Of a stretch of 64,000 bases of DNA, positions 5,854-57,751 are shown piece after piece. Below the pieces are notes generated by a model that saw only the letters and a program-made list of their open reading frames with translations, was not told where the DNA came from and did not search any database. Source of the stretch: Candidatus Nomurabacteria bacterium. Its GTDB lineage: Bacteria > Patescibacteriota > Patescibacteriia > Magasanikbacterales > UBA922. Both the position numbers and the translations under genes were made by a program. Location of the stretch: the NCBI GenBank assembly GCA_020632445.1, contig JACKFN010000004.1:4952-68951 (forward strand), read 5' to 3'. Each line of letters begins with the position of its first letter. The stretch's first letter is position 1.

Positions 5854-5952
5854 TCACCACGGTCCGATCCACCCACCAACATACCCCACCCCCGGCGCGT
5901 TCCCACCACGCGCCAACCCCAATTATAGTTTTCATCTTGGAAGTTATTGAGG

Positions 5953-5985
5953 GAAAAGCACAGACATTGATCTGTGCTTTTTTTA
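5953..5985 (+). terminator. rho-independent terminator
   Basis: aaagcacagacattgatctgtgcttttttt: hairpin followed by a T-run. Confidence 0.6.
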
Positions 5986-6014
5986 TTGTATAATACATGC
6001 ACACATACAAAACT

Positions 6015-6479
6015 ATGACCATTGAATCAGCAAAAAATTACGAAAATCGCGTCGAGCGACAAGCAGAACACCGCGAATCCAAAGAAGGAGAAAAAGATCC
6101 CGAGCTTCAAGCTGCCGCGGCTATGGAGCGTGCCGAGCTTTTGGCAAAGGAAGTGAAAAATAGCAAAAAGCAGATGCAAAATATTGCGATCAATGTAGCC
6201 AATGTCAAAAATACTATTGCACAGCTGCGCGCCCAGCTCCAACTTGCTGCTAGTGACGATGATCCTCAATCAGTGCAGCAAGACAAGCAAGCACTCGAGG
6301 CGCTCAAAAAGAAAATTGCTCTTCATCAAGACGAGCTTATGAAAATGCGAGGAGATTTGATAAAACAACAAATGGAAGTGCTCAGTGAAGGAGGAACAGA
6401 CATGACACCTTCACAGCTCCAAGAACTGGCACAAAGACAGGTTGATGCGCTTATTGGCTCAGCGCATGATGATGAGTAA
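6015..6479 (+). CDS. hypothetical coiled-coil protein
   Basis: A TATAAT box sits just upstream. The product is a Glu/Lys/Gln-rich helical protein. Confidence 0.45.
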   Translation: MTIESAKNYENRVERQAEHRESKEGEKDPELQAAAAMERAELLAKEVKNSKKQMQNIAINVANVKNTIAQLRAQLQLAASDDDPQSVQQDKQALEALKKKIALHQDELMKMRGDLIKQQMEVLSEGGTDMTPSQLQELAQRQVDALIGSAHDDE

Positions 6480-6604
6480 AAATTGTGGTATACTAGGAAG
6501 GTAAAAATCGTTGCATTGCTACATGGTGAACATCTAGCAAATTTTTACGTATATACGTAGAATATAAAACCATTTGACCACATGGCAATGGAGCAATTAT
6601 TGGT

Positions 6605-8404
6605 ATGTACCCACGCCTGTCAAAATGTCACAAAGGAATTACTCTCATAGAAATTATTCTTGGAATAGGAATTTTTTTGCTTTTTGCCGTTGGAATTTTT
6701 AGTGGACTCAAGTTTATTTTCACAGTGGTGTATCAGTCTCGTGTTCGCATTTTGGAAACAGCTATTTTAAACGAACAAATTGAAATAGTACGGAACATGT
6801 CTTTTTATGATGTAGGTATCATCAATGGGTCTCCAGCTGGGAATTTGGAGGCGACAATAACGACCGTACGAAACGGAATATCATTTGATATCGTCCGTAC
6901 CGTGCGCAACATAGATGATGAGTATGATGGTACGATTGGTGGTGATCCAAACGATACATCACCGGCAGACTACAAGCTCGTAGAAATTTCTGTAAACTGT
7001 GTGAGCTGCCGGCAAAGAGTTCCACTGACTATGACGAGCTATATTGCCCCGAAGTATATAGAGGGAAACCCAGACAATGGTGCCTTGTTTATTCAAGTTT
7101 TTGATGCCCAGGCTCAGCCAGTAGCAGGTGCCACATTGGACATTGATGCCGTCATTGGCACCACAACCATAGATATCACGGACACGACCGATAACGAAGG
7201 ATACTTGCGAATAGTTGATCTGCCAGCTGGCGTCAACGAATATACTCTTGTCGCGACAAAGGCAGGATATACCACCGATCAAACAGAGTCATCAACAGAA
7301 GCATTGCCAAATCCCGTAAAACCATTTGCTTCCGTTGTAGCGCAAGATGTTACGGAAATAAGTTTGAGTATCGATAGGGTTTCTCAGATTAACCTCACGA
7401 CCAAAAATATTTTTTGTAACCCGCAAGGGTCTGTACAAGTGAACCGGCTTGGGACAAAGCTCAAAGGAACGGATCCGGAAACGCTCAAAGTCAACGACAA
7501 TATTGTTACCGATGGCAGTGGAGTATATGGCTATAGCAGTGTTATTTGGGATAGTTATGGTTTTCGAGCAACGGGGTATGATATTTTGGGAACGGTGCCT
7601 GCTATGCCACTTTCTGTCCTTCCCAATACGAGTAATGATATTGATTTGATTCTTGGTCCTGATAGCGATGATTCTTTGGTGGTGTATGTTTACGATAGTG
7701 TAACGAGCGAACCGATTTCTGATGCCACGGTAAGGCTCACAGATGGAGCTGCTTTTGATCAATCTTCACAAACGGGTGTGGGCTATATTCGACAAACAGA
7801 TTGGTCAGGAGGAAGTGGTCAAGAAAATATGCTCGACGATACGATGTATGATAGTGATAATGGTGGGGTGAATGTGATTTCGTCGGCTGGCAACATGATG
7901 CTTCAGTCTGTTGGGCCAGATTACGTGGCATCTGGCGAGCTTGTTTCTTCTGTATTTGATCTTGGTGTTGGTGTTAATTATCTGTATCTTGATTGGCAGC
8001 CAATAGCTCAGCCCGTAGCAACAGGAGAAAACTCACTGCGTATCCAGGTTGCGACAAGCGCCTCGTCGACACCGGCAACGTGGAATTTCTTGGGTCCTGA
8101 TGGTACAGATGCGACCTATTATGATCAGAATAATTTTGAAATTCACGCTGGACATGATAATGACCAATACTTTCGTTACAAAGTATACTTGTCTACCAAT
8201 ACGACGACGCAATCACCAACACTTTCTGACATTACCATGACATATACAACAGCATGTACTCCGCCAGGGCAGGTCTATTTTGGCAATCTCGTGAATGCCA
8301 CCGAGTATACGGCTACGGTATCAAAAGATGGTTACGAGACGTCAACACAAGCCGTAATTGTGAGTGGGGATATTGTCTTTGGTGTGTCACTCAATACTTT
8401 GTAA
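6605..8404 (+). CDS. type IV pilin-like protein (prepilin-type N-terminus, G|ITLIE with Glu at +5) with a large beta-rich C-terminal ectodomain
   Basis: KGITLIEIILGIGIFLLFAVGIF class-III signal / N-methylation motif, followed by about 550 aa of a Thr/Asp/Gly-rich extracellular region. Confidence 0.65.
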   Translation: MYPRLSKCHKGITLIEIILGIGIFLLFAVGIFSGLKFIFTVVYQSRVRILETAILNEQIEIVRNMSFYDVGIINGSPAGNLEATITTVRNGISFDIVRTVRNIDDEYDGTIGGDPNDTSPADYKLVEISVNCVSCRQRVPLTMTSYIAPKYIEGNPDNGALFIQVFDAQAQPVAGATLDIDAVIGTTTIDITDTTDNEGYLRIVDLPAGVNEYTLVATKAGYTTDQTESSTEALPNPVKPFASVVAQDVTEISLSIDRVSQINLTTKNIFCNPQGSVQVNRLGTKLKGTDPETLKVNDNIVTDGSGVYGYSSVIWDSYGFRATGYDILGTVPAMPLSVLPNTSNDIDLILGPDSDDSLVVYVYDSVTSEPISDATVRLTDGAAFDQSSQTGVGYIRQTDWSGGSGQENMLDDTMYDSDNGGVNVISSAGNMMLQSVGPDYVASGELVSSVFDLGVGVNYLYLDWQPIAQPVATGENSLRIQVATSASSTPATWNFLGPDGTDATYYDQNNFEIHAGHDNDQYFRYKVYLSTNTTTQSPTLSDITMTYTTACTPPGQVYFGNLVNATEYTATVSKDGYETSTQAVIVSGDIVFGVSLNTL

Positions 8405-8405
8405 T

Positions 8406-9008
8406 ATGGATAGGCGTGGAATAACACTTTTGGAAATAGTTATCTCAGTTGGCATCTTTGTTATGCTTACTTTTTCTATCGCTTATATACTTATTACTAC
8501 GCTCAAATCCAATGCCATTGTATGGGATCAGCTCCAAATTCAAAATGAAGGGAGAAAAGTTATTCAGCAAGTTGTAGATGAGGTCCGTCGGGCTGAAAGT
8601 TCCAGTATTGGAAGCTATGCCATTGCTACATCCTCAGCAAATGATTTGGTGTTTTATGCAAACATTGATGATGATGAGCTTCGGGAGAGAGTTCGATTTT
8701 GGCTTGATGGAACAGTGCTAAAAAGAAGTACGGTAAAGCCGTCTGGAGCTGACCTAGCGTACAACAACGCTAATGCATTTGTCGTTGAGCTTGCGCACAA
8801 TTTGACCAACGCTGCAGATGGTGAGGCGGTGTTTGAGTATTATGACGGTGACTATACTGGATCTGGTTCAGGATTAACCCAGCCGGTAAGTACGACCGCT
8901 GTCAGAGCGGTGAGAGTACAACTCAACTTTGAACGCGCCCCAGATAAGAGTCCGGAGCCATTGCGTGTGGAAGCATTTACGAGCATTCGAAATCTCAAAA
9001 CCAATTAA
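8406..9008 (+). CDS. type IV minor pilin / pseudopilin-like protein
   Basis: RRG|ITLLEIVISVGIFVM prepilin motif. The ATG at 8406 follows the upstream stop by 1 nt. Confidence 0.65.
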   Translation: MDRRGITLLEIVISVGIFVMLTFSIAYILITTLKSNAIVWDQLQIQNEGRKVIQQVVDEVRRAESSSIGSYAIATSSANDLVFYANIDDDELRERVRFWLDGTVLKRSTVKPSGADLAYNNANAFVVELAHNLTNAADGEAVFEYYDGDYTGSGSGLTQPVSTTAVRAVRVQLNFERAPDKSPEPLRVEAFTSIRNLKTN

Positions 9009-9013
9009 TTCAT

Positions 9014-10506: not shown

Positions 10507-11379
10507 ATGCAAAGCGTTCGAAAAGGAATTATTACGGTTGCAGGATTGGGTACTCGATTTTTGCCAGCTACCAAGGCCATGCCAAAAGAAATGCTTCCGG
10601 TGCTTGATAAGCCGGTTTTGCAGTATATTGTAGAAGAAATGGTCGAAAGTGGTATCAAAGAGATTATTTTTGTCACCAGTTCTCAAAAACGTCCGATTGA
10701 AGATCATTTTGACCGTGATAGAGATTTTGAAATTTTTTTGAAAAGCAAGGGAAAACTCAATCGGCTTCAACCACTCATTGATTTATGCGAGAAAGTACGA
10801 TTTTTTTATACAAGGCAGTCAGAGCCGCTCGGAAATGGACATGCCATGATGTGTGCCCGTGAGTTTGTTGGTGACGAACCATTTGCTTTTTCGGACGGAG
10901 ATTCTATTATTGACGGAGAAACACCAGTGGTCAAGCAACTCGTTAAGGTGTTTAACAAAAAACAGGCATCAGTCATCGGGGTACAGCGTATCGAAGATAA
11001 GAAAGCTATGATGAAGTATGGGAATGTCTATGGAACACCGGTTCGGGGTGAGTCAAGAACGTATCGCGTGAGTGAGTTTATTGAAAAACCGGCAATGTCA
11101 AAGGTATCACCACATGGGCTGATTGTGGGAGGAATGCGATACGTTTTCACCAAAGACATTTGGGCACATTTGGAAAAACAACGCGAAGGAAGAGATGGTG
11201 AGATATGGCTTGCAGACGCGGCCAATTCACTTGCCAAGAAAAAACCTTTTTTTGCCTATGAATACGATGGAATCTATTTTGATACCGGGGATAAACTCGC
11301 ACTGTTGAAAACAACACTTCATTTTGCCATGAAAGATAATGAAATGGCAGATGAAATTAAAAAATTTGTTTGTGGGTAA
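10507..11379 (+). CDS. galU: UTP--glucose-1-phosphate uridylyltransferase
   Basis: GIITVAGLGTRFLPATKAMPKEMLPVLDKPVLQYIVEE nucleotidyltransferase motif. Confidence 0.85.
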   Translation: MQSVRKGIITVAGLGTRFLPATKAMPKEMLPVLDKPVLQYIVEEMVESGIKEIIFVTSSQKRPIEDHFDRDRDFEIFLKSKGKLNRLQPLIDLCEKVRFFYTRQSEPLGNGHAMMCAREFVGDEPFAFSDGDSIIDGETPVVKQLVKVFNKKQASVIGVQRIEDKKAMMKYGNVYGTPVRGESRTYRVSEFIEKPAMSKVSPHGLIVGGMRYVFTKDIWAHLEKQREGRDGEIWLADAANSLAKKKPFFAYEYDGIYFDTGDKLALLKTTLHFAMKDNEMADEIKKFVCG

Positions 11380-12613
11380 AAGATTTTTACATTTTTTCGT
11401 ATTAAGTCTATTTATTGTAGTAGGTCTTTCGATGTATTTAGAAAATGCGTACGCCGCAGAGAAGCCAAGACTCATTGAGTGTGGTGTGCCAGGGGAGACG
11501 ACTCAATACACAGTCTGGTGGATGGGGGGAAAATATGAGAAAAGAGTTTGTCTCGATGTAAGGAAAGGTAAAACATCTTTAACGTATTGGGAGCTTTTTC
11601 GATCGGGGATATTTAGTGATCATGGTCCTTGGGAAGATGTGGATGCTTTCGTAAGTTACAGATGTGATGGGGCATTTTGGCGGAATCCTGGACTTCCTGA
11701 ATGGAGAAAGTTAAAGGATATTACTTTTCCACTAGAAGAAAAAATTGAAGTGGATGGAAAGAAGTGTGAATGGAGAGTTTTACTTGATACGGAAGATAGA
11801 CCAACATATATTTATTATGAGGGTGTGCAGTTGCCTTCTGAGGCAGAAGTTGCTGCTGCCGCGGGTTGTGAATGTAAAATTGAATATGCTGGGATTGGAG
11901 GAAATCCGGATCGCGGAGCTGTGTTTTTTGGTGGAGTTGCTAAGCTTCCATATGTTGATCATAACTCGATTCCCAAAAATCAGCTCTGTGGAGAAAGTAC
12001 CACCGTTACTATTGGTATAGGTCGATCAGGTCCTGCGAATGAATTGTTGAATTTAAGAAAGATTGCAGAGGCACAAGCGCTTGGTCGATCAAATTGTTGG
12101 CCAATGTATTTGAAAGAAAGTGCCGTTGCATCAAGGACTCTTCAGATCGATAATGAAGAACAGTGTAAGGCACTAGAGGGTGGACTTCAAAATTTTGCGG
12201 TCCCTGAATTTTCTATGAGACTCAATGGAATAGGAGAAGTGACAGTTCGAGGTGCATATCGTATTTTAATTAAAAGCTGTGAGATTGTTGGAAAACTTGA
12301 GAGTGCCCCTTCGGATAGTCAGCCAGTCGTTTCAGAAGTTCCTTTTTCAGTGCCAAGCCCATCTTCTCTGAACCGATTGGGGGATACCAATTTTCAGGGC
12401 CTTATTGGGAGGGCAATCAAGTTCGTTGTTCAGATGCTCGGATCCATTGCTTTTGTGATGTTTGTGTATGGGGGAATTTTGTTTATGTTTTCTGGTGGAA
12501 ATAGTAGCAAAGAATTGAAGGCCATTAAGACACTTGCTTATGGAGGTATAGGTGTACTGATTATACTTTCAAGTTATATTCTTGTTCAGTTTTTATTTAG
12601 TGCATTTTCATGA
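11339..12613 (+). CDS. T4SS-pilin-like (TrbC/VirB2-type) protein with a large N-terminal ectodomain
   Basis: Signal peptide. The C-terminal core LIGRAIKFVVQMLGSIAFVMFVYGGILFMFSGGNSSKELKAIKTLAYGGIGVLIILSSYILVQF is shared with 11 paralogs (helix - short polar loop - helix). Confidence 0.55.
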   Translation: MKWQMKLKNLFVGKRFLHFFVLSLFIVVGLSMYLENAYAAEKPRLIECGVPGETTQYTVWWMGGKYEKRVCLDVRKGKTSLTYWELFRSGIFSDHGPWEDVDAFVSYRCDGAFWRNPGLPEWRKLKDITFPLEEKIEVDGKKCEWRVLLDTEDRPTYIYYEGVQLPSEAEVAAAAGCECKIEYAGIGGNPDRGAVFFGGVAKLPYVDHNSIPKNQLCGESTTVTIGIGRSGPANELLNLRKIAEAQALGRSNCWPMYLKESAVASRTLQIDNEEQCKALEGGLQNFAVPEFSMRLNGIGEVTVRGAYRILIKSCEIVGKLESAPSDSQPVVSEVPFSVPSPSSLNRLGDTNFQGLIGRAIKFVVQMLGSIAFVMFVYGGILFMFSGGNSSKELKAIKTLAYGGIGVLIILSSYILVQFLFSAFS

Positions 12614-13431
12614 TGAAGAGATGTGGGCTTTGGTTTGTGTGTAGTTTACTCGGTGCATTTTTCGTGACTCCTCCGTTTGCCGTATCAAAGAATCTTTGTG
12701 AATGTTTTGTGGTTGTTGAGGGTGTTCAAGATCGATATGGAAACCCCGTCGGTAACCAGATTTGTAGATCAGAAGGACAGACCAAAGGAGTTTCTCAATT
12801 CGTCATAGAGCTTGGGTCTCTTTCAGGGGATACCGTACAGGTAAACTTAGAAGAAAAAATTACTCCATTGGTGAAAAATCTTTATGATGCAACCAATTAT
12901 GGGTCAAGAGCTTGTTTTCCAATTGAAGAGTCAAAGTATCGTCAGCATATAAACAAGTACATGATTGACGTAAGTAATGTGGATGTCTCTGAAGAATCTT
13001 GTGGGGATCAGTTGCATGGTCTAAGTGTAGCAGTACCGGTAAAAAGCACATCAAACGTAAATTACGATGGGTATTATGTGGCAAACCTTTCTTGTAAATA
13101 TGTTGTTAGAGAAGAAGATGGAAGTGAAGCAGTTATAATCCAAGAGGTTGGAGGGGGTTATAGGGAATTTCGTTTTCAGGACCAACTTTCCAAAGGCGTT
13201 GCCGGTTCTTTCCAGATGCTCATAGGAAAAGCGATTAAATTTGTAGTCGGAATGCTTGGATCTGTTGCGTTTATTATGTTTGTATATGGCGGAATTCTTT
13301 ATATGTCTTCGAGAGGAAATACTGACACGCAGAAAAAGGCGCTCCTTACATTGGCCTATGCAGGGATAGGAGTCGTAATTATTCTCTCAAGCTACATACT
13401 GGTGAAGTTTTTGTTTAGTGCATTTTCATAA
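12610..13431 (+). CDS. T4SS-pilin-like protein with an N-terminal ectodomain
   Basis: The C-terminal 90 aa are near-identical to the preceding gene (…FVYGGILYMSSRGNTDTQKKALLTLAYAGIGVVIILSSYILVKFLFSAFS). Confidence 0.55.
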   Translation: MMKRCGLWFVCSLLGAFFVTPPFAVSKNLCECFVVVEGVQDRYGNPVGNQICRSEGQTKGVSQFVIELGSLSGDTVQVNLEEKITPLVKNLYDATNYGSRACFPIEESKYRQHINKYMIDVSNVDVSEESCGDQLHGLSVAVPVKSTSNVNYDGYYVANLSCKYVVREEDGSEAVIIQEVGGGYREFRFQDQLSKGVAGSFQMLIGKAIKFVVGMLGSVAFIMFVYGGILYMSSRGNTDTQKKALLTLAYAGIGVVIILSSYILVKFLFSAFS

Positions 13432-17538: not shown

Positions 17539-18486
17539 TTGTCAATTTCGCAATTTTCTTCTATGAACACAAAATTCAAAATACTTTTTCTTTCATTTAC
17601 GCTTACCATAGGAGTTTTGCTTGGTGCTGGTTATGCACTTGCCAACGATTATGGGCTTGGTGCTACCGCTGGAGCTGCCGGACTTACCAATTCAGCCGGT
17701 GGAAATGATGTGCCAACTATTCTTGGTAATGTTATTGGAACGGCACTATCAGTAGTATCTATTGTCTTTTTTATCCTCATGATTTATGGAGGATTCTTGT
17801 GGATGACTGCACACGGAAAAAGTGATCAGACAAGTAAAGCACTTGATACCATTATTGCTGCGGTGATAGGTATTATCATTGTACTTGGAGCGTATGCGCT
17901 TACCCAATTTGTGTTTGATAACATTGCTGGAGGTGGAGGCGCTGGCGGAGGTGTGGCACCTTCTGCGGCTGATCTTAAACCGAATGATACATCTTGCAAT
18001 ATTGATGCAGACTGTCAATCTGGTGCATGTGTTCTCTTTGCTGGAGCACCGACTAAGCTTTGTTCTGCGCCTGGTGCAATCGGAGAAGAATGCCAGGCAA
18101 ATAACCATTGTGTTACTGGAAATTGTCAGGGTGGCCAATGTGCAGATGGGGGGGCAGCGGCAGGCGCAGGCGCAGGCGCTGATGACCTAGCCGCACAAAG
18201 AAATCAGCTCAATGCAGAGCTTCAGGGAATGCTACAGCTTGTCGATGGTTTTGCTACTTGTATAGATGATGGTGATAACGTCGGCTGCGACGATGCTGAA
18301 GATGACTTCGGTGAACAGATAACTGAGCTTGGAACACTCATTGGCACGGCACAAGCGACGGATGATATTGCTCAAAAGGAGGCATCAAAGATACAGGTGC
18401 AAACTAAAATAGATGCAATGGCAGGGATGATGAGGAATGTGTGTGATCAAGATGTACTTAATTGTGCAGCGCGAGCAGGTAGGTAA
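17539..18486 (+). CDS. T4SS-pilin-like protein with a C-terminal Cys-rich extension
   Basis: Pilin core (IYGGFLWMTAHGKSDQ...GAYALTQF) followed by a Gly linker and CNIDADCQSGAC...CQANNHCVTGNCQGGQC. Confidence 0.55.
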   Translation: MSISQFSSMNTKFKILFLSFTLTIGVLLGAGYALANDYGLGATAGAAGLTNSAGGNDVPTILGNVIGTALSVVSIVFFILMIYGGFLWMTAHGKSDQTSKALDTIIAAVIGIIIVLGAYALTQFVFDNIAGGGGAGGGVAPSAADLKPNDTSCNIDADCQSGACVLFAGAPTKLCSAPGAIGEECQANNHCVTGNCQGGQCADGGAAAGAGAGADDLAAQRNQLNAELQGMLQLVDGFATCIDDGDNVGCDDAEDDFGEQITELGTLIGTAQATDDIAQKEASKIQVQTKIDAMAGMMRNVCDQDVLNCAARAGR

Positions 18487-23575: not shown

Positions 23576-23646
23576 AGGGATAGGTTAAGCTTTATATAAA
23601 TAGTATTTCAAAAAACAGGGAAGATTTCAAGCCAGGGTGGTGCTGG

Positions 23647-24270
23647 CTATTCGGTGTGGGTGTACAGGTGTGGCCACACGGCATAGCGGAGGTCAGCGTT
23701 TGTCTCCACCTCCATCTGAGCAGATAGAAAGACGGTTCGGTGGTCTGGGGGGAGTACACGCCTTATGCTCACCAGTGGTGAGCGTAGATAAGCGATAGGT
23801 TCTTCGATGACATTTCGTCCTCCGTTGGACGCATGGATCGCTGTGCCTTTCTCGGTCAGAAGTACCACATGTCCTACGGGGGGATCGACATGAGTCCAGC
23901 TGTGGTATCCCAGGGTGAAACCAAGATCGCCATCCTGAAATGGTTCGCCGTTTTTCAGCGCTTGGCCTTGCTGGCTTTGCTCTGCGCTAAAGCGAGGGAG
24001 CCAGACACCCATCTGGCTGTAAATCCACTTTACAAAACTCGAGCAGTCCACGAGCTCAGGGGCAAGGGAAGCACTGACATGCTTTACGTATTGACTCTGG
24101 CCGATTTGACCGCGTGCCATCTCGACGGGGTCGATTCGCTGCCAGGCGCATCCAATAGCCCCCAATGCCTCGTAGATCTGCCTGTCACTGAACTGTTTCC
24201 AGAAGTCGATATTTCGGTCGATCAGACATCGTCCTGCGCGAGCGTGAAAAAGCATAATTCCCCTGCGCAA
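23647..24270 (-). CDS. NlpC/P60 (C40) family peptidase, GC-elevated (about 55%)
   Basis: Catalytic Cys context DCSSFVKWIY plus downstream His (HVVLL). GC is clearly above the flanks. Lies between tRNA-His and tRNA-Arg. Confidence 0.6.
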   Translation of the reverse strand: MRRGIMLFHARAGRCLIDRNIDFWKQFSDRQIYEALGAIGCAWQRIDPVEMARGQIGQSQYVKHVSASLAPELVDCSSFVKWIYSQMGVWLPRFSAEQSQQGQALKNGEPFQDGDLGFTLGYHSWTHVDPPVGHVVLLTEKGTAIHASNGGRNVIEEPIAYLRSPLVSIRRVLPPDHRTVFLSAQMEVETNADLRYAVWPHLYTHTE

Positions 24271-24390: not shown

Positions 24391-24465
24391 TGGTACCCCC
24401 GCTAGGAATCGAACCTAGAACCTCGGCTTAGAAGGCCAATGTTATATCCATTTAACTACAGGGGC
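24391..24465 (-). tRNA. tRNA-Arg (anticodon TCT), CCA encoded
   Basis: Reverse complement GCCCCTGTAGTTAAATGGATATAACATTGGCCTTCTAAGCCGAGGTTCTAGGTTCGATTCCTAGCGGGGGTACCA folds as a cloverleaf with anticodon loop CTTCTAA. Confidence 0.8.
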
Positions 24466-24565
24466 ATGAATTTTGCTTTAGCACTCGACATTGTCAGGGG
24501 CAAAGCATGGTGTTATCCATTTCCCGCCCAAGGCGGGTCCGCCTCGGGCGGAAACTACAGGGGCA
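24466..24565 (-). pseudogene. degenerate partial duplicate of the tRNA-Arg 5' half, interrupted by a 31-nt GC-rich double-hairpin insert
   Basis: GCCCCTGTAGTT[TCCGCCCGAGGCGGACCCGCCTTGGGCGGGA]AATGGATAAC… lies immediately 5' of the intact tRNA and does not fold as a tRNA. Confidence 0.35.
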
Positions 24566-24607
24566 TCTTGGGCAATGGGATCATTTTAGGGCAAAAGGAC
24601 CAAAAAG

Positions 24608-37109: not shown

Positions 37110-37240
37110 CTTACCGACACCCCACCTCCGGTCGCACACCCACACGACCAACCCCAAAAAAGCATCTGCAAAAGGTGTTTTTTTGTTTGCAAAAATATAC
37201 CTACTATGTTTAAATCATTTTGGAAACGAGAGGAGTGCAC

Positions 37241-37843: not shown

Positions 37844-37914
37844 TTTCCTACCCACCTTCCAATTCAGTATTTTGACAGAAATCGTATTTTGAGAGAAAAT
37901 ACTCGCAGAAATAT

Positions 37915-41817: not shown

Positions 41818-41846
41818 TTGACAAATGGCGGCATGTGTGGTAAGTT
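41818..41846 (+). promoter_or_regulatory. sigma70-type promoter (TTGACA - 17 nt - TAAGTT, TGTG extended -10)
   Basis: ttgacaaatggcggcatgtgtggtaagtt. Confidence 0.45.
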
Positions 41847-41859
41847 GCACTGTCAGATC

Positions 41860-41900
41860 AAAGGTCTTAGGCAAGGTAAAAAGCCTTGCCTAAGACCTTT
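41860..41900 (+). promoter_or_regulatory. perfect 17-bp stem / 7-nt loop hairpin in the 5' UTR of cassette 41916..42512 (operator or attenuator candidate)
   Basis: aaaggtcttaggcaagg taaaaag ccttgcctaagaccttt, ending 1 nt before the GAGAGGAG Shine-Dalgarno. Confidence 0.5.
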
Positions 41901-41915: not shown

Positions 41916-42512
41916 GTGATAGAAAAGCTGTATACAGCTCGCCGTGTAGCCTTCCACGCGCGGAATGGCTTTACTCAGCGTCAACAAGAGATGCTCGTGC
42001 GGGATGGCTGTGAGCTCCACACGATCAAAGGCGGTCACCAGTTCGTGGTGATGCGCTACGACGTGGGTGAGTACACGGGTCTCCCAGTGTACGAGTTCAT
42101 GAAGGAAATGTCGGATCAAAAGGATGCTTTTTTTTCCGTTCACGTTTTGCCTGTAGAGCTTGATGGGTGGAACCAAGTGGCGGTCATCCCGGCGGGGAGT
42201 GACTACTATGCGTTTCATCTAACTACCATTCGATGGGTGCGGGGAACATACGTGTGCATCCATTTGGGCATCTGTGGAAAAAGTGGTGTGATCGTCCTCA
42301 ACTTGCATCAGCTCGAGCGAGTAGAGCAGATGCAGAAGGTAGAAGGGTTGTCTTTTGACGGGACGATCTATAGAGTTGCTACGCGACACATGCATTTTCC
42401 CGGATTCCGTGAGTTGTCCGAAGATCAACCGGACATGGGAGCCGCAGTGCTTGGATCGCTCAGTGATAGGATCGGTTCGGTACGCGCTCACGAACTGCTC
42501 GTCACTCGCTAA
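41916..42512 (+). CDS. high-GC (about 58%) hypothetical protein (foreign cassette)
   Basis: GTG start 7 nt after GAGAGGAG; no recognisable domain. Confidence 0.5.
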   Translation: MIEKLYTARRVAFHARNGFTQRQQEMLVRDGCELHTIKGGHQFVVMRYDVGEYTGLPVYEFMKEMSDQKDAFFSVHVLPVELDGWNQVAVIPAGSDYYAFHLTTIRWVRGTYVCIHLGICGKSGVIVLNLHQLERVEQMQKVEGLSFDGTIYRVATRHMHFPGFRELSEDQPDMGAAVLGSLSDRIGSVRAHELLVTR

Positions 42513-42686
42513 CAGAATCCCACCAAAAAAGGTAGTCAAAACCCTGCCACAAAGCTACCCTTCAAAAAAATTCCAAAAGTGTATATAATAGCGGTGTTAT
42601 TTGCTGATTGCATCAGAAAAACTGATGCAGCCAGGAAACCACACCAGCGACCGGGGGTCGCACTTGCGCCAGAGGAGGGCGCAACT

Positions 42687-42905
42687 ATGAAGAGGCATTT
42701 CCTGCAGCAGTCGGATCCCAACGGCGACAAGGACCCGCGTACACACGCCAAGCGTGCGTGGGTGGGGCTGACCAACGCCGGTGTTCCCGGTGTTCCCCTC
42801 GACTTCGCGAGCAACCTGCCCCTCGCCATGCACGAGGCGACGGTCGCGGGGCTGCTCACGCCGCGTGTCTTCCACAAGGGCGTGAGCCAGACCGCCAGCT
42901 TCTAG
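42687..42905 (+). CDS. small high-GC (about 65%) hypothetical protein, 72 aa (foreign cassette)
   Basis: Perfect TATAAT at 42584-42589, an 8-bp hairpin at 42609-42629, GAGGAGG 7 nt before the ATG. C-rich tail after the stop. Confidence 0.4.
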   Translation: MKRHFLQQSDPNGDKDPRTHAKRAWVGLTNAGVPGVPLDFASNLPLAMHEATVAGLLTPRVFHKGVSQTASF

Positions 42906-42960
42906 GCCTCCACACAACTCCCCCCTCGCGCCGCCGCGAGAACCCGCCTAGCGCCTCGAC

Positions 42961-43509
42961 TCACCTCGAGGCTTCTCCAACTCCAATGGTTTTTAAAATC
43001 GTATCCACGTGCACGTCATAGGCTTTGCTTGCAGGCAATAGGTGGTACGGTACTTGGTTTTTGAGAAAGAGATGGGCAATGAGTCTATCCATCATATCCC
43101 GGAATTCTTTATCAGTGCTGCGAATTCCATCAGCTTTCGCCTCGATCGAAAGTTTTTTTGTTTTAAAAACATAGTCATAGCTTGCCATATGCTCTGCTGC
43201 TGCGCGCTCAAAGTGCGAGATATCGAGCGGGCTGGTGATTCGGTACATGTAGGCAAAATTATCAAGTGCAGAGCGGTCGGTGATAAACACTTTATCGCTG
43301 TGGTCTATCTCAGTTTCTCGAGAAATTTGGTTGAGCAGAATCCATTTTTGCGCATCGAGAGTCGTCTGCTCATTGATAGGCATTGGGCACACCCTTGCCA
43401 GCTCCTCAAGGACGACAACGTGTTTTCCATGCGTTTCCAGTGCGGCCTGTAGGTGCGTGATGATAGATGTTTTTCCAGTGGAGTGGGTACCAATGATAGC
43501 GATTTTCAT
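42961..43509 (-). CDS. P-loop NTPase (AAA_28 / NadR-like small kinase family)
   Basis: MKIAIIGTHSTGKTS Walker A and DRS…; a GC-neutral native gene. Confidence 0.5.
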   Translation of the reverse strand: MKIAIIGTHSTGKTSIITHLQAALETHGKHVVVLEELARVCPMPINEQTTLDAQKWILLNQISRETEIDHSDKVFITDRSALDNFAYMYRITSPLDISHFERAAAEHMASYDYVFKTKKLSIEAKADGIRSTDKEFRDMMDRLIAHLFLKNQVPYHLLPASKAYDVHVDTILKTIGVGEASR

Positions 43510-51853: not shown

Positions 51854-51918
51854 TTATTTGGATTGACAAAAAGGGGGTAATCATGTAAAAAGGTGAGGCG
51901 TGGCACGAGGAGGTGAAA

Positions 51919-53151
51919 GTGGACGCGAAAATGTACTGGAGCCTGGACCCCGACAACTGGGGCATGCAGCAGAAGATCGGTTACGTCCCGGTCGATGATC
52001 CGGATGCGGCGATGGCTGAGATCATGGTGTGGAACGTCCCCTACATGCGGGGCAAGATCACCATGGACAACAAGGGTTACTTCTACATCTACATTCATAG
52101 TCGGCTCCGGTGGTTCCGTGTTGGGCATGGTATCTTCGTGCTCTACCGGATGATCTGCCACATGCTCGATACCCACGCGCGGGAGATGCCGACGATTAAG
52201 CAGATCAGAAAGGCCCTTGACGGTCTGGACGTGGACTTTCAGGTCCTCGAGCCGCCGCAGACCGACCGTTTCGGTCAAGGCACGTACATTCGTGGTGTAC
52301 TTAGTGCACATCTGAGTGAGCTCGCGCGAGCAGTTGACTGCGACAAGGTCGAGGCACGCAAGTTGATCGTGCACATGCTCGGCGTGCATGGACTCGGCGA
52401 GGGACAGGAACTCAAGACGGTCGTCCTCACTTGCTTGAGCGAAGACGCACGGGAGTCGCTTCTCGATCGGCTCAGCAGCATCAGCTCCATGCATCCGCAT
52501 CTGTGCTACTATCGTGCGCAGGTGCGCCAGATGATCCTGCTGCTTGAGGATCTTCTGGATCAGGGAGTCGCAGCCGCCCAGTCCCTGATCCGCTACCTTG
52601 ATCCCAGCGCCGGACAGCCCGCCAACATCTTGGAGACCAAGATCAACGCAGTCGGTCGTTGGGTTTCAATGATGCGGATCAAGCCCTACTCGCATATCCC
52701 GGGGTACGCTGTCAGTGAGCTCGAGGAGCTCAGGCAGTTGGCTCGTGTCACTGGGAAGCAGGAAGAAGCTCTCGCGCTTGCGCGTCGAATCCACTCGGGG
52801 CTGTTGATCATGAAGATGCGTCGCAGTCTTGCGCTCTCGGCGATGCACGTCGACCATGGCAACAAGGCACTGAAGACGAAGGATGTGCGAGCCTCCAGCA
52901 AGCCGATGCGCCAGTCGCTTCTCAGGCGGATCATCGCATCCTTGGAGAGTACCTCCAGACAGTGTGCTCAAATCGATGAGACCGGCTTCTCCAACCCAGT
53001 GTGCGACCAGATTCGTGCCAATTTGTTGCAGGTGCTTTCACACCTGAAGCAGATTCTGTCACTACTGGAAACTGACGGTGATAGGGAGGAGATGGGGAGT
53101 CATTTCTCCATCGCCGCGGCGCACCTCAAGAATACGGCTCAGCTCATCTAG
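51919..53151 (+). CDS. high-GC (about 60%) hypothetical protein, about 410 aa (foreign cassette)
   Basis: Promoter TTGACA (51863)-17-TAAAAA. GAGGAGG 5 nt before the GTG at 51919. C-rich tail cccacctctgc…caccccaccggccgcc. Confidence 0.5.
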   Translation: MDAKMYWSLDPDNWGMQQKIGYVPVDDPDAAMAEIMVWNVPYMRGKITMDNKGYFYIYIHSRLRWFRVGHGIFVLYRMICHMLDTHAREMPTIKQIRKALDGLDVDFQVLEPPQTDRFGQGTYIRGVLSAHLSELARAVDCDKVEARKLIVHMLGVHGLGEGQELKTVVLTCLSEDARESLLDRLSSISSMHPHLCYYRAQVRQMILLLEDLLDQGVAAAQSLIRYLDPSAGQPANILETKINAVGRWVSMMRIKPYSHIPGYAVSELEELRQLARVTGKQEEALALARRIHSGLLIMKMRRSLALSAMHVDHGNKALKTKDVRASSKPMRQSLLRRIIASLESTSRQCAQIDETGFSNPVCDQIRANLLQVLSHLKQILSLLETDGDREEMGSHFSIAAAHLKNTAQLI

Positions 53152-53359
53152 CAAGCATTTCAGTCGATCCCACCTCTGCACAGCGGTCACCCCACCGGCC
53201 GCCAGAAGATTCCCTTGACTTTTGTGAAAAAAAAGTGTAATGTATTGCAGAAGCTTTTTCGCTTTTTTTGTTTTAAAATAATGGAACAAAGAAAGCGACG
53301 AAGCTGCGAGCATGGGCTCAAAGCGGGGATCGCGCGACTCAATGGGGAGAAGAGAGAAG

Positions 53360-53590
53360 ATGGAAGCAACGAGCGAGGCTCAGGTGCACTTCGGTCTGGA
53401 TCGCAGCACGGGGCGTCAGGTGGCGGTCCAGGGCGCCACCGGTCGTCAGGCGCCCAAGCTCACCGACAAGATCCCGGGCACCGACAAGGCCTCGGGCATC
53501 GACAAGATCAACCCGGTCCAGAACCACGGCTTCGCGACCAGCCTCGGCGACCTGTTCGGCCCCCAGCTCAGGGGCGTTCACACCTCCTGA
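53360..53590 (+). CDS. small high-GC hypothetical protein, 76 aa, with internal repeats (TGRQVAVQGATGRQAPK / PGTDKASGIDKINP)
   Basis: Promoter TTGACT (53215)-17-TAATGT. Purine-rich Shine-Dalgarno GGGGAGAAGAGAGAAG before the ATG. C-rich tail gcacccgccaccaccc. Confidence 0.35.
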   Translation: MEATSEAQVHFGLDRSTGRQVAVQGATGRQAPKLTDKIPGTDKASGIDKINPVQNHGFATSLGDLFGPQLRGVHTS

Positions 53591-53774
53591 TCCTGGCTGG
53601 ACTCGTTCCAGCACCCGCCACCACCCATGAGCGCAGCGCTCGTCTCGCCAACCAGGCCTGCACCACCGCGGGCCTGTCACATACATCTATAGAAGCATAC
53701 AAACATTTGAACATATAAACATGGTGCCGATAGGGCATTTTTTGTTTTTCAAAAAAGATTTTCTGTGTTATGCT

Positions 53775-54569: not shown

Positions 54570-54600
54570 GGGAGTTTCATTAGCAAAAGAATTTTTTTCA

Positions 54601-54624
54601 GGGGCCATGGACATGGCCCCTTTT
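54601..54624 (+). terminator. rho-independent terminator
   Basis: ggggccatggacatggcccctttt. Confidence 0.6.
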
Positions 54625-55130
54625 AGGTGGGGCGGTGGTCGTTTGGCGTTAGGGCTTGGGCGGCCCTCGCGCCTGGTATTGGATGTTCAGGGTCGTCTCC
54701 TCATTCGAGCGTCAGGGACGCCCGACAAGTTGCGCGCGAGAATTCGATCTCACGCGCCTTGTTGTCGTTAGCGGCCGGAGCCCATGGGAACCTCCAGGTG
54801 TGCTGCTCGGGGCAGCTCCCGGTGGGTCATGCCTCCCTGTCTTTTCGGTTTCCTTCACCACTGTTTTTGATCTGCAGGTCTGTCTTGCACAAACAGACTC
54901 TTCCGTGGCAGGAGATGCCAGGGTTACCACAGATCGTGGACTTGGGTTCAGGAATAGTGTCCTCAGTTGTTCAAAGCGGCTTGGAGCAGCCTCGTGTATG
55001 AGGACTCTTACCTTAGGAAGGCCTCAGGCTAGGTGCCGACTTGATTTTTCGGCTTCCTTGCCTAGCTTGACCCAATTGTCGTGCCGAGACTATCACGGGC
55101 CTGCTCGATGGCAGTCTTGGGCACGCAAGT
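54625..55130 (+). other. GC-rich (about 60%) non-coding block; no convincing ORF in any frame
   Basis: Stops interrupt all six frames. The composition matches the foreign cassettes. It could be a structured RNA or a decayed cassette. Confidence 0.3.
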
Positions 55131-55612
55131 GTGTGTTGGCCCGTAACAGGAGTAATATATCACAAAATACAATATTTGTCAAGTGCTACTATACACAATG
55201 CGGGCATGTGCATTCATAGAGAAAAAAAGTGCTTTTTTCGAAACATAGCTCATGTGAGAAGTCCATTATGTATAGAACTCCTTATCATTTTAGTTGTGTA
55301 AATTTAGGTAAAAAAATAAGTTATCCACAAAAAATGAATAACTACTCTTGACAAGCAAATAAATACATGATAAAACAATAAGGTAGTCAAAAAAGTAAAT
55401 TGATTCTTTACAAACAATCACCACGAACCCAAGGGGGTTTTAGCTAGGCTCCTTTGGCATATAGCGTTTCGTGGTGGTTGGGTTATATGTCAAAGAGTCG
55501 AGCAAAGTCCCTCTAAATAAGGGGCTTTTTGCTTTGCCTGATTTCGCATCAGGAAGTTCCCAATGTTTTGAAAGTTTTAAGATATCGGGAACCATCACCA
55601 TGGAGGGACACA

Positions 55613-55714
55613 GTGAAGTACGAGCTGAGCGTCATCATGACGCCGGTCGTGTTTACGCTGGTGCACCTGGCGCTCATCGCCGGGTTCTGCGCCAGTCTGA
55701 CCGGCCGCATCTGA
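55613..55714 (+). CDS. possible small hydrophobic peptide (33 aa, single TM), high GC
   Basis: GGAGGG 5 nt before the GTG. Product VKYELSVIMTPVVFTLVHLALIAGFCASLTGRI. An overlapping Arg-rich frame exists, so this is speculative. Confidence 0.2.
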   Translation: MKYELSVIMTPVVFTLVHLALIAGFCASLTGRI

Positions 55715-55739
55715 TCGAGACACCCCCCGTCCGATAACC

Positions 55740-56140
55740 AACCTTCAATAATACTGGGTCAACCAGTCTCCTCTTGCATATAATTGCAGCTACTGGCGTT
55801 GCTTCCAGCAGGAAGCGACCCGGGTGCTCGAGGTGTGACCGCCGCTGTCCAACCTTTGTTCAGGCTCCCGCCATTGCCTGAACCATTCCCCAATGCCTCT
55901 TAATTGAGAAGTATTGGGGAGTAACTTCTAGGAGAATGCTTCCCGCCCGATCGGGCTACCCATTGAGATGGTCCCTAGGTTCAAAATTCCTTGCCTCGGC
56001 AAGACTACCTCCTAGGCCTGACGCATAAGCAGCGTGAATGGTAGTGCGCTGCGCCCACCCTGGCTCGATTCCCCATCGAGCCCCTTGATTGCCTCTTTCT
56101 GTTTTCAGGAAGTGGCTCAAAGGAATAATTTTTCATAACA
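55740..56140 (+). other. GC-rich non-coding region dense in nested hairpins (candidate structured RNA)
   Basis: TGTTCAGGC…GCCTGAACA, CCCCAAT…ATTGGGG, GCCCGATCGGGC, TTGCCTCGGCAAG, GGCTCGAT…ATCGAGCC. Confidence 0.3.
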
Positions 56141-56143
56141 CCC

Positions 56144-56193
56144 ATGCTTGTCACGTTTTCTCTTCACTCTGGGCCCTATGGCTCAGCGATGAA
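56144..56193 (+). repeat. repeat R1 (50 bp), a copy of the leader/start region of the cassette at 57124
   Basis: atgcttgtcacgttttctcttcactctgggccctatggctcagcgatgaa matches 57079-57128 with 3 mismatches. Here the ATG is followed by an early stop (atgaatag). Confidence 0.7.
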
Positions 56194-56296
56194 TAGAAAA
56201 TGGTATGTTTTTACTTCCTAAAATGATTGGGGAGTTAGTTGGAGATCTCTCAGTGTGCCAAATATGACATAGTGAGGGATTAACCAAGGAGCTCCC

Positions 56297-56977
56297 ATGA
56301 ACGAGTATGAGCGAGTCATTCAGGCCGGTGCGGTGGCGACGATCGTCGACTCTCACGAGTCTGACGGCGTCAATGACGTCGTGGTGCGAGTGGCCAATGG
56401 TCATGGGAGCGTGCTGTTGCTCATGTTGCTCAGCGGCACCGGTGTGGTGTGCACACAGCGCATTATAGCCGATGAGCTGGCGCACCAGCGTGAGCGGATC
56501 CTCAGTCGTGGGATCCACGCTGGCAATGCCAGTGTGAGGATCATCGACCTGGCAGAGTTTCGTCGGCGCTTCCCATCAAAGCCGTGTACGGTGCGGGAAG
56601 GGATCGAGGCTCACAGGCATCGCCTGTACGAGTATGCCGATCTGCGGCGCGAGCGGGGTGGCTCGGACTGGCGAGGTGAGATGCCGCTGACGGTCGACCC
56701 TGCGGTCAAAGAGCTGCTCGCTGAAAACCCGTATCTCACGGGAATAATCGTGAGAGGGGTTTACGCCAAGCGCGGTGGTGCCGGGTATTCGGTGCGACTT
56801 GGCTTCGGCAAGGCGGTCAAGTTCTGGGAGGAACATTCGAGTTCGTGTTCGGGGTTGCCTGTCAGCGTGAGTGTTGAACTCGTCGATGATGAGCCTCACC
56901 CGAGCTGGATCTTGTCGCCTGCGCAGGCTAACGTGTTGCGTTGGTACCTTGCGGTGACAGACGAGTGTTGCTCCTGA
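56297..56977 (+). CDS. high-GC (about 62%) hypothetical protein, 226 aa (cassette J)
   Basis: GGAG Shine-Dalgarno and an ATG at 56297. Its N-terminal motif AGAVATIVDSHESDGVNDVVVRVANG resembles the C-terminus of cassette K. Confidence 0.5.
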   Translation: MNEYERVIQAGAVATIVDSHESDGVNDVVVRVANGHGSVLLLMLLSGTGVVCTQRIIADELAHQRERILSRGIHAGNASVRIIDLAEFRRRFPSKPCTVREGIEAHRHRLYEYADLRRERGGSDWRGEMPLTVDPAVKELLAENPYLTGIIVRGVYAKRGGAGYSVRLGFGKAVKFWEEHSSSCSGLPVSVSVELVDDEPHPSWILSPAQANVLRWYLAVTDECCS

Positions 56978-57010
56978 CGCAGTTACTCTGCCTACCAAAT
57001 ACGCCTACCT

Positions 57011-57037
57011 CAATCACCACATTCAAACAAAGTTTTT
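57011..57037 (+). repeat. trailer repeat T1 after cassette J
   Basis: caatcaccacattcaaacaaagttttt; a copy lies at 57517-57543 after cassette K. Confidence 0.65.
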
Positions 57038-57078
57038 GTCGTGACAAATATTTTGTTGGACTTGTTTCACCAGCATCT

Positions 57079-57128
57079 ATGCTTGTCACGTTTTCTTTTC
57101 ACTCTGGGCCCTGTGGCTCAGCGATGAA
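57079..57128 (+). repeat. repeat R2 (leader plus start codon of cassette K)
   Basis: See R1. Confidence 0.7.
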
Positions 57129-57507
57129 CGGAAAACGGAAAATTGCGATGGTTATCATTCGTTTTGTTCGAGGGTCTGAGACTCGTGACATGGCCGTGGA
57201 CTTGGTAACCCGTGATGAGGCACGGGAGATTCTGGTCACCGGCCACAAGGCTGGCTTTGACTGGAAGATCGAGTATCGGCTAGCGAGCGAGATTGAGGCA
57301 CACCTGTGGATGGCCGCAGATTTTACCGCGCGGATCCTTCGTGCTCTGATGCGTGGGCTCCCTGTGAGGTTTGACGGCGTAACCTGGTTTCGGCTCGATC
57401 AGGCGGGCGAGATCGAAGACGTGATCGTCAATTCTGGTGCCGTCGTCACCATCGAATCAGACGATGATAATGGCTTGGTTATTATCAGAGCAGGACAGAT
57501 CCACTGA
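57124..57507 (+). CDS. GC-elevated hypothetical protein, 127 aa (cassette K)
   Basis: The ATG lies inside repeat R2. Its C-terminus SGAVVTIESDDDNGLVIIRAGQ resembles J's N-terminal motif. Confidence 0.45.
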   Translation: MNGKRKIAMVIIRFVRGSETRDMAVDLVTRDEAREILVTGHKAGFDWKIEYRLASEIEAHLWMAADFTARILRALMRGLPVRFDGVTWFRLDQAGEIEDVIVNSGAVVTIESDDDNGLVIIRAGQIH

Positions 57508-57516
57508 TCCCACCTC

Positions 57517-57543
57517 CAATCACCACACTCAAACAAAGTTTTT
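57517..57543 (+). repeat. trailer repeat T2 after cassette K
   Basis: caatcaccacactcaaacaaagttttt. Confidence 0.65.
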
Positions 57544-57751
57544 AAAGCGTGAAGTTGAAGATTTTGTTTGAAGGTTATAAGTATGTTTTTCACCAAAAAA
57601 GAACTCAAAAATTTGGATCAGGAGCAGCTCTACGAAGTTCGTGAAGCCTACTTGACACATATGAAAAATCCACAGGCATCAAAGTTTCAGTTTTTGCAGC
57701 GCAAACCAGTTCTTGCTGACATGTCGCTTGTTGATGATATGATTTTGCAGT

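Follow-up and report, generated by a model that had tools for sequence, protein, structure and literature searches.

A 64,000-nucleotide (nt) stretch of chromosome from Candidatus Nomurabacteria bacterium, one of the Patescibacteria or Candidate Phyla Radiation (CPR), raises the question of why about a dozen GC-rich orphan genes, set among genes of ordinary composition, should each be followed, at or shortly past the stop codon, by a C-rich tract displaying CCCAC(C) boxes. The whole stretch is here called the window, the GC-rich units are called cassettes and the tract after each of them its tail. The answer comes in parts of unequal strength. As a 3′ element of the high-GC cassettes the tail is real: it is specific to one strand, its sequence is non-random, and one instance has been conserved in evolution. 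Judged from sequence, it may be a protein landing pad in the 3′ untranslated region (3′UTR) of the cassette transcript, most likely one resembling a Rho utilization (rut) site and acting in Rho loading or insulation; this reading is ranked first, with somewhat less than even confidence. A C-rich regulatory seed and a relic of a donor or shared module come next, both doubtful, and a site of DNA recombination comes last, as improbable.

The C-rich tail and its cassettes

The initial annotation had proposed a C-rich tract of CCACC and CACCC units after every cassette stop codon, and its nine quoted examples are all present, within about 10 nt of where they had been placed. The comparison with shuffled sequence and native 3′ flanks was run, and the C-rich runs are far commoner in cassette tails. 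In the first 60 nt past the stop codon, (C-G) per nt has a median of +0.23 for 12 cassettes versus -0.03 for 55 native genes (Mann-Whitney p=2e-7), and CCACC, CACCC or CCCAC occurs in 10/12 cassette flanks versus 3/55 native ones (Fisher p=7e-8), the corresponding counts for CCCACC being 7/12 and 0/55 (p=9e-7). Tail composition alone does not explain the hexamer, since 8 of 13 tails contain it while dinucleotide-preserving shuffles average 2.0 and none of 2000 reaches 8. On the plus strand, 9 of the 12 tracts of 30 nt with at least 45% C and at most 10% G lie directly after cassette stop codons. Counting both strands, CCCACC occurs 31 times in the window (21 expected), 12 of these being in cassette tails in sense orientation; in the two minus-strand units it is on the minus strand, so the motif tracks transcription and not the chromosome strand.

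The excess of C over G amounts to 10-30 bases over 22-158 nt in tails, the median for native genes being 4, and its span is 22-130 nt in all but c11 and the NlpC/P60 gene (listed below). C makes up 28-52% and G 0-19% of the tail in 10 of 11 plus-strand cassettes (22-130 nt), c11 having 23% G over 158 nt. The C excess rises with the GC content at third codon positions (GC3) of the open reading frame (ORF) upstream (Spearman 0.70, p=0.017). That every cassette has a tail thus holds for C-richness; the motif itself is replaced by variants in c6 (CCTCCACAC), c9 (CCTACC twice, plus CACCAC) and c11 (CACCCCCC). The earlier list had also passed over c5 (box at 42519), c11, a non-coding unit (box at 56054) and the two minus-strand units. 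Its restriction of hairpin-plus-T-run terminators to native genes does not stand: in c1, c2, c3 and the 54601-55182 unit the tail is followed by a classic terminator, so the tail is no replacement for one.

The cassettes are units of 51-66% GC embedded among native genes, the window as a whole having ~43% GC. At least 12 are promoter-driven ORFan units. There are ten ORFs, c1 to c10, of 72-419 amino acids (aa), together with c11, an ORF-poor stretch and the two minus-strand units, and small arrays are formed by c2-c3-c4, c5-c6, c7-c8 and a group at 54601-57543. A separate promoter of the TTGACA-N17-(TG)TATAAT type, lying in AT-rich DNA of host-like composition, drives each unit, and this is followed by a strong Shine-Dalgarno (SD) sequence and often by a 5′UTR hairpin. 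High GC sets in at about the start codon and lasts until the tail ends, promoters and most 5′UTRs being host-like. GC3 is 0.54-0.91 versus 0.35-0.47 in native genes, and the order GC3>GC1>GC2, with A at only 1-10% of third positions and C3+G3 of up to 0.9, marks the cassettes as genuine coding sequences whose codon usage is that of a high-GC bacterium. The units, their tails and the hairpins in them are as follows (RBS, ribosome-binding site).

4771-5853, plus strand: c1, 360-aa lipoprotein-like ORFan, GC 64%, GC3 0.88; promoter 4650-4677
5854-5927, plus: c1 tail, boxes CCACCCACC (5869-5877) and CCCCACCCCC (5884-5893); C 48%, G 12% over 83 nt
5894-5914, plus: c1 tail hairpin, GGCGCG-TTCCCACCA-CGCGCC, then AACCCCAA; classic terminator 5954-5984
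34849-35637, plus: c2, 262-aa coiled-coil ORFan, GC3 0.70; promoter 34786-34813
35638-35691, plus: c2 tail, TCCCAC at 35644-35649 and CCCACCAC at 35656-35663
35663-35683, plus: c2 tail hairpin, CTCGA-TTTCCCATCGC-TCGAG; terminator 35692-35718
35850-37109, plus: c3, 419-aa ORFan, GC 62%; promoter 35726-35754
37110-37157, plus: c3 tail, CACCCCACCTCC at 37118-37129
37130-37149, plus: c3 tail hairpin, GGTCG-CACACCCACA-CGACC, then the same AACCCCAA as in c1; terminator-like hairpin 37156-37184
37241-37843, plus: c4, 200-aa ORFan, GC3 0.54, the most host-like composition
37844-37865, plus: c4 tail, short C-rich TTTCCTACCCACCTTCCAAT, box 37851-37856, no G in 22 nt; abuts the thymidine-kinase promoter
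41916-42512, plus: c5, 198-aa ORFan; promoter 41818-41846; perfect 5′UTR hairpin right before the RBS
42513-42574, plus: c5 tail, A/C-rich and G-poor, CCCACC box 42519-42524; runs into the c6 promoter
42687-42905, plus: c6, 72-aa ORFan, GC3 0.86
42906-43008, plus: c6 tail, C-rich CCTCCACACAACTCCCCCC; no exact CCCACC
42925-42940 and 42953-42972 (loop CTCACC), plus: two GC hairpins of the c6 tail
51913-53151, plus: c7, 412-aa ORFan, GC3 0.74; promoter 51863-51891; directly 3′ of the S1 gene
53152-53214, plus: c7 tail, single-stranded box GATCCCACCTC (CCCACC 53169-53174)
53183-53202, plus: c7 tail hairpin, GCGGTC-ACCCCACC-GGCCGC
53312-53590, plus: c8, 92-aa ORFan, GC3 0.84-0.85; promoter 53215-53245
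53591-53690, plus: c8 tail, CACCCGCCACCACCC at 53612-53626, between hairpins
53654-53675, plus: c8 tail hairpin, GGCCTGC-ACCACC-GCGGGCC; needs a U-G pair
54601-55182, minus strand: high-GC unit with a long leader and a 20-codon ORF at 54830-54768; promoter 55182-55154
54660-54621, minus: tail of that unit, sense strand reading AAACGACCACCGCCCCACCTAAAA at 54644-54621; terminator 54620-54601
55613-55714, plus: c11, 33-aa hydrophobic peptide ORF, GC3 0.91
55715-55750, plus: c11 tail, GACACCCCCCGTCCGATAACCAACCTTCAAT
55760-56095, plus: non-coding high-GC unit, no ORF of at least 60 aa; ends in GCGCCCACCCTGG, box 56054-56059
56062-56082, plus: hairpin of the non-coding unit, GGCTCGA-TTCCCCA-TCGAGCC
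56297-56977, plus: c9, 226-aa ORFan, GC3 0.70
56978-57037, plus: c9 tail, CCTACC followed further on by CCTACCTCAATCACCACA; 27-nt block at 57011-57037
57124-57507, plus: c10, 127-aa ORFan, GC3 0.60
57508-57543, plus: c10 tail, TCCCACCTCCAATCACCACACTCAAACAAAG, box 57509-57514
23647-24270, minus: NlpC/P60 gene, moderately high GC, GC3 0.59
23610-23646, minus: NlpC/P60 gene tail, hairpin CCAG-CACCACC-CTGG (23646-23632), then a T-rich run

The first box starts 0-22 nt past the stop codon, and between one and four CCCAC(C) boxes follow at intervals of about 12-21 nt, the long tails having at least two. Tails run from 22 to about 130 nt, typically 55-85 nt, with about 9 of 12 spanning at least 55 nt. 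Those of c4 and c10 have only 22-27 nt, and c4, c5 and c10, the most host-like cassettes, keep one box only, the one nearest the stop. By prediction the platform, C-rich and G-poor, is mostly unpaired, its proximal part included, and in most long tails there is at least one short GC hairpin (-3 to -15 kcal/mol), and there may be as many as three. A layout that recurs is a single-stranded box and then a short GC hairpin with a further C-rich box in its loop. The stems vary between units (GGCGCG, GGTCG, GCGGTC, GGCCTGC, CTCGA, CCAG) and the loops stay C-rich (TCCCACC, CACACCCACA, ACCCCACC, ACCACC, TCCCC, CACCACC). Beyond the short boxes no alignable sequence is shared between tails, those of c9 and c10 apart. 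With the Rfam 15 covariance models, only two tRNAs reach the gathering score in the window, and the C-rich tail tracts have no overlapping match even with the limit relaxed to E<=10.

The cassette proteins, deposited as hypothetical proteins H6758_02845 to H6758_03130 in the NCBI metagenome-assembled genome (MAG) of Candidatus Nomurabacteria bacterium, on a contig of 124,315 bp, proved unrelated when compared with each other. Searches of the ten against Pfam, PHROGs and PADLOC gave no family, the exceptions being coiled-coil noise for c2 and a marginal PHROG for c10 (E 0.001). There is no homolog of c1 among 5.8e9 proteins or of c3 among 1.84e9 cluster representatives; c7 has a single homolog, in a CPR relative only, and its predicted structure (mean pLDDT 57.9) is too poor for a fold search. 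A phage or plasmid origin was rejected, 24 kb having no match to phage records, the PHROG hits amounting only to coiled-coil noise, and relatives of c7 and c3 and the c9/c10 flank blocks being absent from IMG/VR. No defence-system proteins were found among the cassettes, c2 coiled-coil noise aside. Most cassettes also have a near-perfect long hairpin in the 5′UTR, between promoter and RBS (41853-41900, 42600-42632, 53245-53310, 4700-4760); that of c5, CAAAGGTCTTAGGCAAGG-TAAAAA-GCCTTGCCTAAGACCTTTG, is immediately 5′ of the RBS, and that of c8 is kept in the relative described below.

The surrounding DNA is a natural CPR chromosome segment. Its native genes include those for IleRS, GyrA, FtsH, ribosomal proteins S1 and S6, SSB, thymidine kinase, a type IV pilus ATPase, pilin-like proteins of the type IV secretion system (T4SS) and a XerC/D-like recombinase, with two tRNAs. 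The IleRS is at most 59% identical to that of any species-representative genome, the nearest being a Candidatus Magasanikbacteria MAG. Stretches of 8.5 kb and 5.2 kb of the window, with cassettes in them, recur at 100% identity in the Logan assemblies of two sequencing runs, and such identity between independent SRA (Logan) assemblies and the NCBI MAG rules out an engineered construct or assembly chimera. T4SS-pilin (TrbC/VirB2-like) domains, C- or N-terminal, occur in three proteins (11339-13431 and 17539-18486, plus strand) near a solute-binding protein and the type IV pilus ATPase (566-2398). The XerC/D-like tyrosine recombinase gene and tRNA-Arg(TCT), together at 24391-25558 on the minus strand, adjoin the NlpC/P60 gene, and this region could be the edge of a small integrated element.

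Conservation in relatives

A 4.3-kb Logan contig, L083, carries a c7 homolog of 53-54% identity, situated as in the window after the S1 gene and before a c8 homolog. The two S1 proteins are 87% identical, with 57% of conserved-residue codons identical, and synteny of c7 and c8 across such well-separated lineages indicates that the cassettes are old and vertically inherited, as opposed to mobile or recent insertions. In the c7 tail of L083 both CCCACC boxes are kept, with spacers that differ in length and sequence, and the hairpin GCGGUC/GGCCGC has become GCGGCU/GGCCGU solely through switches between U-G and C-G and between C-G and U-G. Since such switches pair in the sense RNA and give C-A mismatches on the other strand, they point to an RNA of the sense strand. 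The c8 promoter is also conserved in L083.

In window and L083 respectively, GC3 is 0.74 and 0.62 for c7 versus 0.35 and 0.28 for S1. Cassette ORFs thus have a GC3 about 0.35 above native in two lineages with 87%-identical S1 (L083 2558-4176), and their proteins are fast-evolving, with 54% and 34% identity between window and L083. Either amelioration of foreign genes is very slow or something maintains high GC in the cassettes.

More distant, Magasanikbacteria-like relatives have a TrmB-like gene at about 40-47% identity. The slot downstream of this TrmB/BlaI-like regulator holds, in every relative examined, a convergent, promoter-driven and mostly high-GC unit, the content of which differs. 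The units in this slot are the following.

54601-55182, minus strand, in the window
1480-2120 in contig L086
10740-11330 in contig L087
further units in contigs L089, L090 and L091

Gly-rich peptides are encoded in the slot in L086 (40 aa, MTRTNKSAFFVFGKGQPCDIGAGGGKGQANEIGAGGGKGK) and L087 (23 aa, MSTFSPCSCDNDGGFGGGKGGGK). The tail after the 40-aa peptide unit has CCCAC at +0 and again in the loop of GGCGC-AUUUUCCCAC-GCGCC, and that of L087 has CACCAC and CACCUCC. Tails in L089 to L091 are not clearly C-rich, L091 being, like L087, partly of the CCCAC type. High-GC promoter-driven units are found in L007, L024, L087 and L091, and CCCAC-type tails only in L086 and, partly, in L087 and L091. Those of L007 (8700-9600, 15420-16260) and L024 (1076-1864, 16494-17273) are high-GC units in low-GC Patescibacteria without CCCACC tails; L024 has two paralogous genes with a common tail, CCTTGTAACCTTAACCCCTCACC, leading into a terminator. 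No further orthologous tail came from scans of JGI metagenomes, one with a c7 profile and one with the conserved tail-promoter junction, and extension of the window through its edge genes gave a 3.5-kb contig only.

What the tail may do

From the enrichment, strand specificity, position, architecture and one-ortholog conservation set out above we infer a function at the level of RNA, with Rho as the candidate agent. The tail would be a functional element of the sense RNA, in the 3′UTR of each high-GC cassette transcript. As the ribosome leaves at the stop codon the tail would be exposed for loading of a protein that binds single-stranded C-rich or A/C-rich RNA, the best candidate for which is the termination factor Rho, the tail then being a rut-like site. 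Such a site would stop or insulate the transcription that starts at the strong cassette promoters, ahead of the next promoter or housekeeping gene, either alone or, in several units, together with the intrinsic terminator downstream.

Rut sites lie in weakly structured regions with a bias of C over G, and Rho primary-site segments favour A and C (2025 review, PMC12360218); cooperation of Rho-dependent and intrinsic termination within 3′UTRs is reported in a preprint (10.1101/2022.07.21.500918). The tails are likewise A/C-rich RNA with C in excess of G, tens of nt long and right after the stop, predicted to be unpaired in the proximal part and interrupted by short GC hairpins in most of the long ones; a G-poor tract near the 60-80 nt of a rut site is present in most of them, at the lengths given above. 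The phage lambda tR1 site (rutA-boxB-rutB) has two C-rich parts with a dispensable hairpin between them. Cassette tails too have C-rich patches interrupted by a hairpin, and may, like rut sites, coexist with an intrinsic terminator in the 3′UTR; in c4, c5, c7 and c9 the next promoter is reached without an intervening intrinsic terminator. The initial annotation had mentioned a rut-like element as an alternative. Composition, position and the length of most tails now favour it, the specific hexamer does not follow from it, and it is the leading candidate mechanism.

Several observations weigh against the rut-like pad. Rho, with its weak sequence specificity, is not known to need a defined hexamer, so that rut function leaves unexplained both the sharp CCCACC hexamer and its display in the loops of hairpins, features in which the tails differ from rut sites. 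They differ as well in that some, those of c4 and c10 at 22-27 nt, are below the usual rut footprint, and in being confined to high-GC ORFan units, native genes of the same genome lacking such tails (none of the 55 flanks with CCCACC). Strong intrinsic terminators already stand after the tails of c1, c2, c3 and the 54601-55182 unit, and no C-rich tail follows the c8 ortholog in L083 over the 100 nt left on the contig. The correlation of tail strength with GC3 also fits passively decaying donor sequence. No rho gene was found among the window ORFs scanned or, by tblastn, at the other loci compared, which, for 64 kb of a MAG, says little, and no literature statement on Rho in Patescibacteria was found.

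In a different reading, possible but with the odds well against it, the tail is a C-rich seed whose unpaired CCCAC(C), UCCC or CACCUCC boxes would pair with G-rich SD-like sequences. Pairing might be in cis, closing the cassette's own RBS, or in trans, by a small RNA (sRNA) processed from the 3′UTR, and the doubt applies to the two variants jointly. The analogy for pairing in cis is the 3′UTR of icaR in S. aureus; for pairing in trans the analogies are the UCCC loops of the staphylococcal RNAIII and Rsa RNAs, the C-rich regions of RoxS/RsaE, and 6C RNA. With such Gram-positive RNAs the tails share several unpaired C-rich boxes, in loops and single strands, and a location in the 3′UTR, and some of the boxes read CACCUCC; several such boxes, often just 5′ of a terminator hairpin, are the usual build of a 3′UTR-derived sRNA. 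UCCC is present in most tails. Five contain CACCTCC, CACCTC or CACCTT, resembling the 3′ end of 16S rRNA (the anti-SD), and these pair with AAGGAGGUGA at -10.9 to -14.3 kcal/mol. The only non-coding G-rich complement on the sense strand in the window, CGUGGUGGUUG (55470-55480), matches CAAUCACCAC of the c9 and c10 tails. However, specific complementarity to the cassettes' own ribosome-binding regions is at chance: tails pair with their own RBS at -14.2 kcal/mol versus -13.8 for the RBSs of other cassettes and -13.9 for shuffled tails (p=0.33), and tail against whole 5′ region gives a mean z of -0.13. Moreover, the core CCCACC, unlike the seeds of the RNAs named, is complementary to GGUGGG and not to the SD core GGAGG, and GGUGGG is absent near any start codon and from any 5′UTR in the window.

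The sequence CGUGGUGGUUG is part of a very stable structured RNA at 55385-55535 on the plus strand (minimum free energy -55.9 kcal/mol, z=-6.1), between a promoter at about 55347 and c11. In its main stem CAAUCACCACG (55412-55422) pairs with CGUGGUGGUUG; the c9 and c10 tails contain the 10-mer CAATCACCAC as well. The c11 peptide behind this structured leader, VKYELSVIMTPVVFTLVHLALIAGFCASLTGRI, is strongly hydrophobic and resembles a type I toxin-like small membrane peptide.

The tail could instead be inherited baggage without a working signal in this host, though this, too, is rather unlikely. It would be either a decaying donor 3′ region or a module spread with duplicated expression slots, the two being covered by the one estimate; on the donor version, high-GC donor genes would have had U-less GC hairpin terminators and C-rich rut-type flanks. 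The high-GC codon usage of the ORFs, the extent of high GC from about the start codon to the tail end amid host-like promoters and 5′UTRs, the correlation of tail C excess with GC3, and the single boxes of the host-like c4, c5 and c10 are all in keeping with it. So are the hairpin and AACCCCAA ending common to c1 and c3, and the blocks shared by c9 and c10 around unrelated ORFs. The latter consist of a 5′ block of 65 nt, 89% identical (56139-56203 and 57074-57138), and a 3′ block of 27 nt, 96% identical (57011-57037 and 57517-57543). An ATG in the c9 copy of the 5′ block opens only a 10-codon ORF, MNRKWYVFTS, a truncated version of the c10 start (MNGKRK...) to judge by its resemblance, and the arrangement looks like the replacement of one ORF by another within an expression slot that had been duplicated. 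Against inherited baggage, both c7 boxes survive while synonymous sites of S1 have largely turned over and the spacers have changed in length, and the hexamer is far commoner than tail composition predicts. A donor, moreover, is not known, given the lack of homologs of c1 and c3 and the CPR-only homolog of c7, and the tails, c9 and c10 excepted, have nothing alignable past the short boxes.

The initial annotation had regarded the tail as the hallmark of a recombination or processing site, comparable to attC or a retroelement target. As a site in DNA, whether attC-like, a transposon or retroelement end, or a homology arm by which ORFs are swapped in expression slots, it now looks improbable. 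The tails do stand at the 3′ boundary of unrelated single-gene units clustered in short arrays, and contain hairpins, as integron cassettes with attC do. The conserved flanks of c9 and c10 around different ORFs keep a weak version of recombination alive, and the promoter-driven unit in the slot downstream of the TrmB-like gene differs among five relatives. None of 13 cassette 3′ regions (-30 to +200), however, contains the attC core pair RYYYAAC...GTTRRRY (R''/R', 40-150 nt apart), and there is no long imperfect palindrome and no IntI, attI or Pc. In place of a common promoter with a promoterless array, there is a separate promoter for every unit and often a separate terminator. Tail hairpins are of 13-29 nt, with non-conserved stems, some of which depend on G-U pairs and so form in sense-strand RNA only. 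Target-site duplications and flanking direct or boundary repeats are lacking, the c9/c10 blocks apart. The window ORFs scanned include none for an integron integrase, a transposase or a reverse transcriptase; the XerC/D-like gene (24608-25558, beside tRNA-Arg) is the sole one for a tyrosine recombinase, and it is roughly 10-30 kb from all but one unit. Cassette content does not vary between relatives as it does in integrons: in a small sample, c7-c8 order is kept in L083, by vertical inheritance across a deep divergence (S1 87%, c7 54% protein identity), and same-strain Logan contigs are 100% identical, with no junction variants. Repetitive extragenic palindromes (REP) and the mosaic elements built from them (BIME) are also GC-rich hairpins in 3′ untranslated regions near stops. 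In those the stems are conserved and the loops are not, whereas in cassette tails the loops are conserved and the stems vary; no conserved palindromic stem recurs across intergenic regions, and tail elements are not spread over native ones, as the absence of CCCACC from native 3′ flanks attests.

Three further candidates were rejected: read-through of the ORF into the tail (in c2 the frame closes after five codons, and a C-rich sequence in any case lacks stops whatever the frame), an antisense G-quadruplex (the G-runs suffice in c1 and c3 only, which excludes it as a general feature), and a Chi-like or uptake sequence (the motif is not spread over native DNA and sits on the C-rich, lagging-type strand).

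Meaning for the lineage

A broader view, speculative and unlikely as a whole, takes the CCCACC tail for a 3′ tag: this CPR lineage would have a dedicated system for capturing, expressing and controlling single foreign genes, and the orphan genes would be co-regulated as one regulon. ORFs together with their tails, derived from an unsampled high-GC source (the host is one possibility), would enter pre-existing expression slots that supply a native promoter, 5′UTR hairpin and terminator. The reader of the tail would be either an RNA-binding factor specific to the lineage or a partner RNA rich in G, for which the RNA at 55385-55535, with its arm CGUGGUGGUUG complementary to the c9 and c10 tails, is a candidate.

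CPR bacteria are ultra-small symbionts, and the function of most of their lineage-specific genes is not known. Here about a dozen fast-evolving, foreign-looking orphan genes, each with its own strong promoter, carry the same 3′ RNA signal. If that signal works, it would be a tag by which to search for a co-regulated set of genes, probably ones of host interaction, and a first concrete, testable case of how CPR bacteria insulate or control acquired genes, by Rho-type termination or by C-rich regulatory RNA. Should it be only a rut-like flank, it would still be a clean, natural, sequence-defined Rho-type element in an unstudied phylum. The larger puzzle is that a CPR genome should have retained a dozen GC-rich orphan genes, each with a strong promoter, for so long, and a working signal would also give a handle on their long-term GC-richness.

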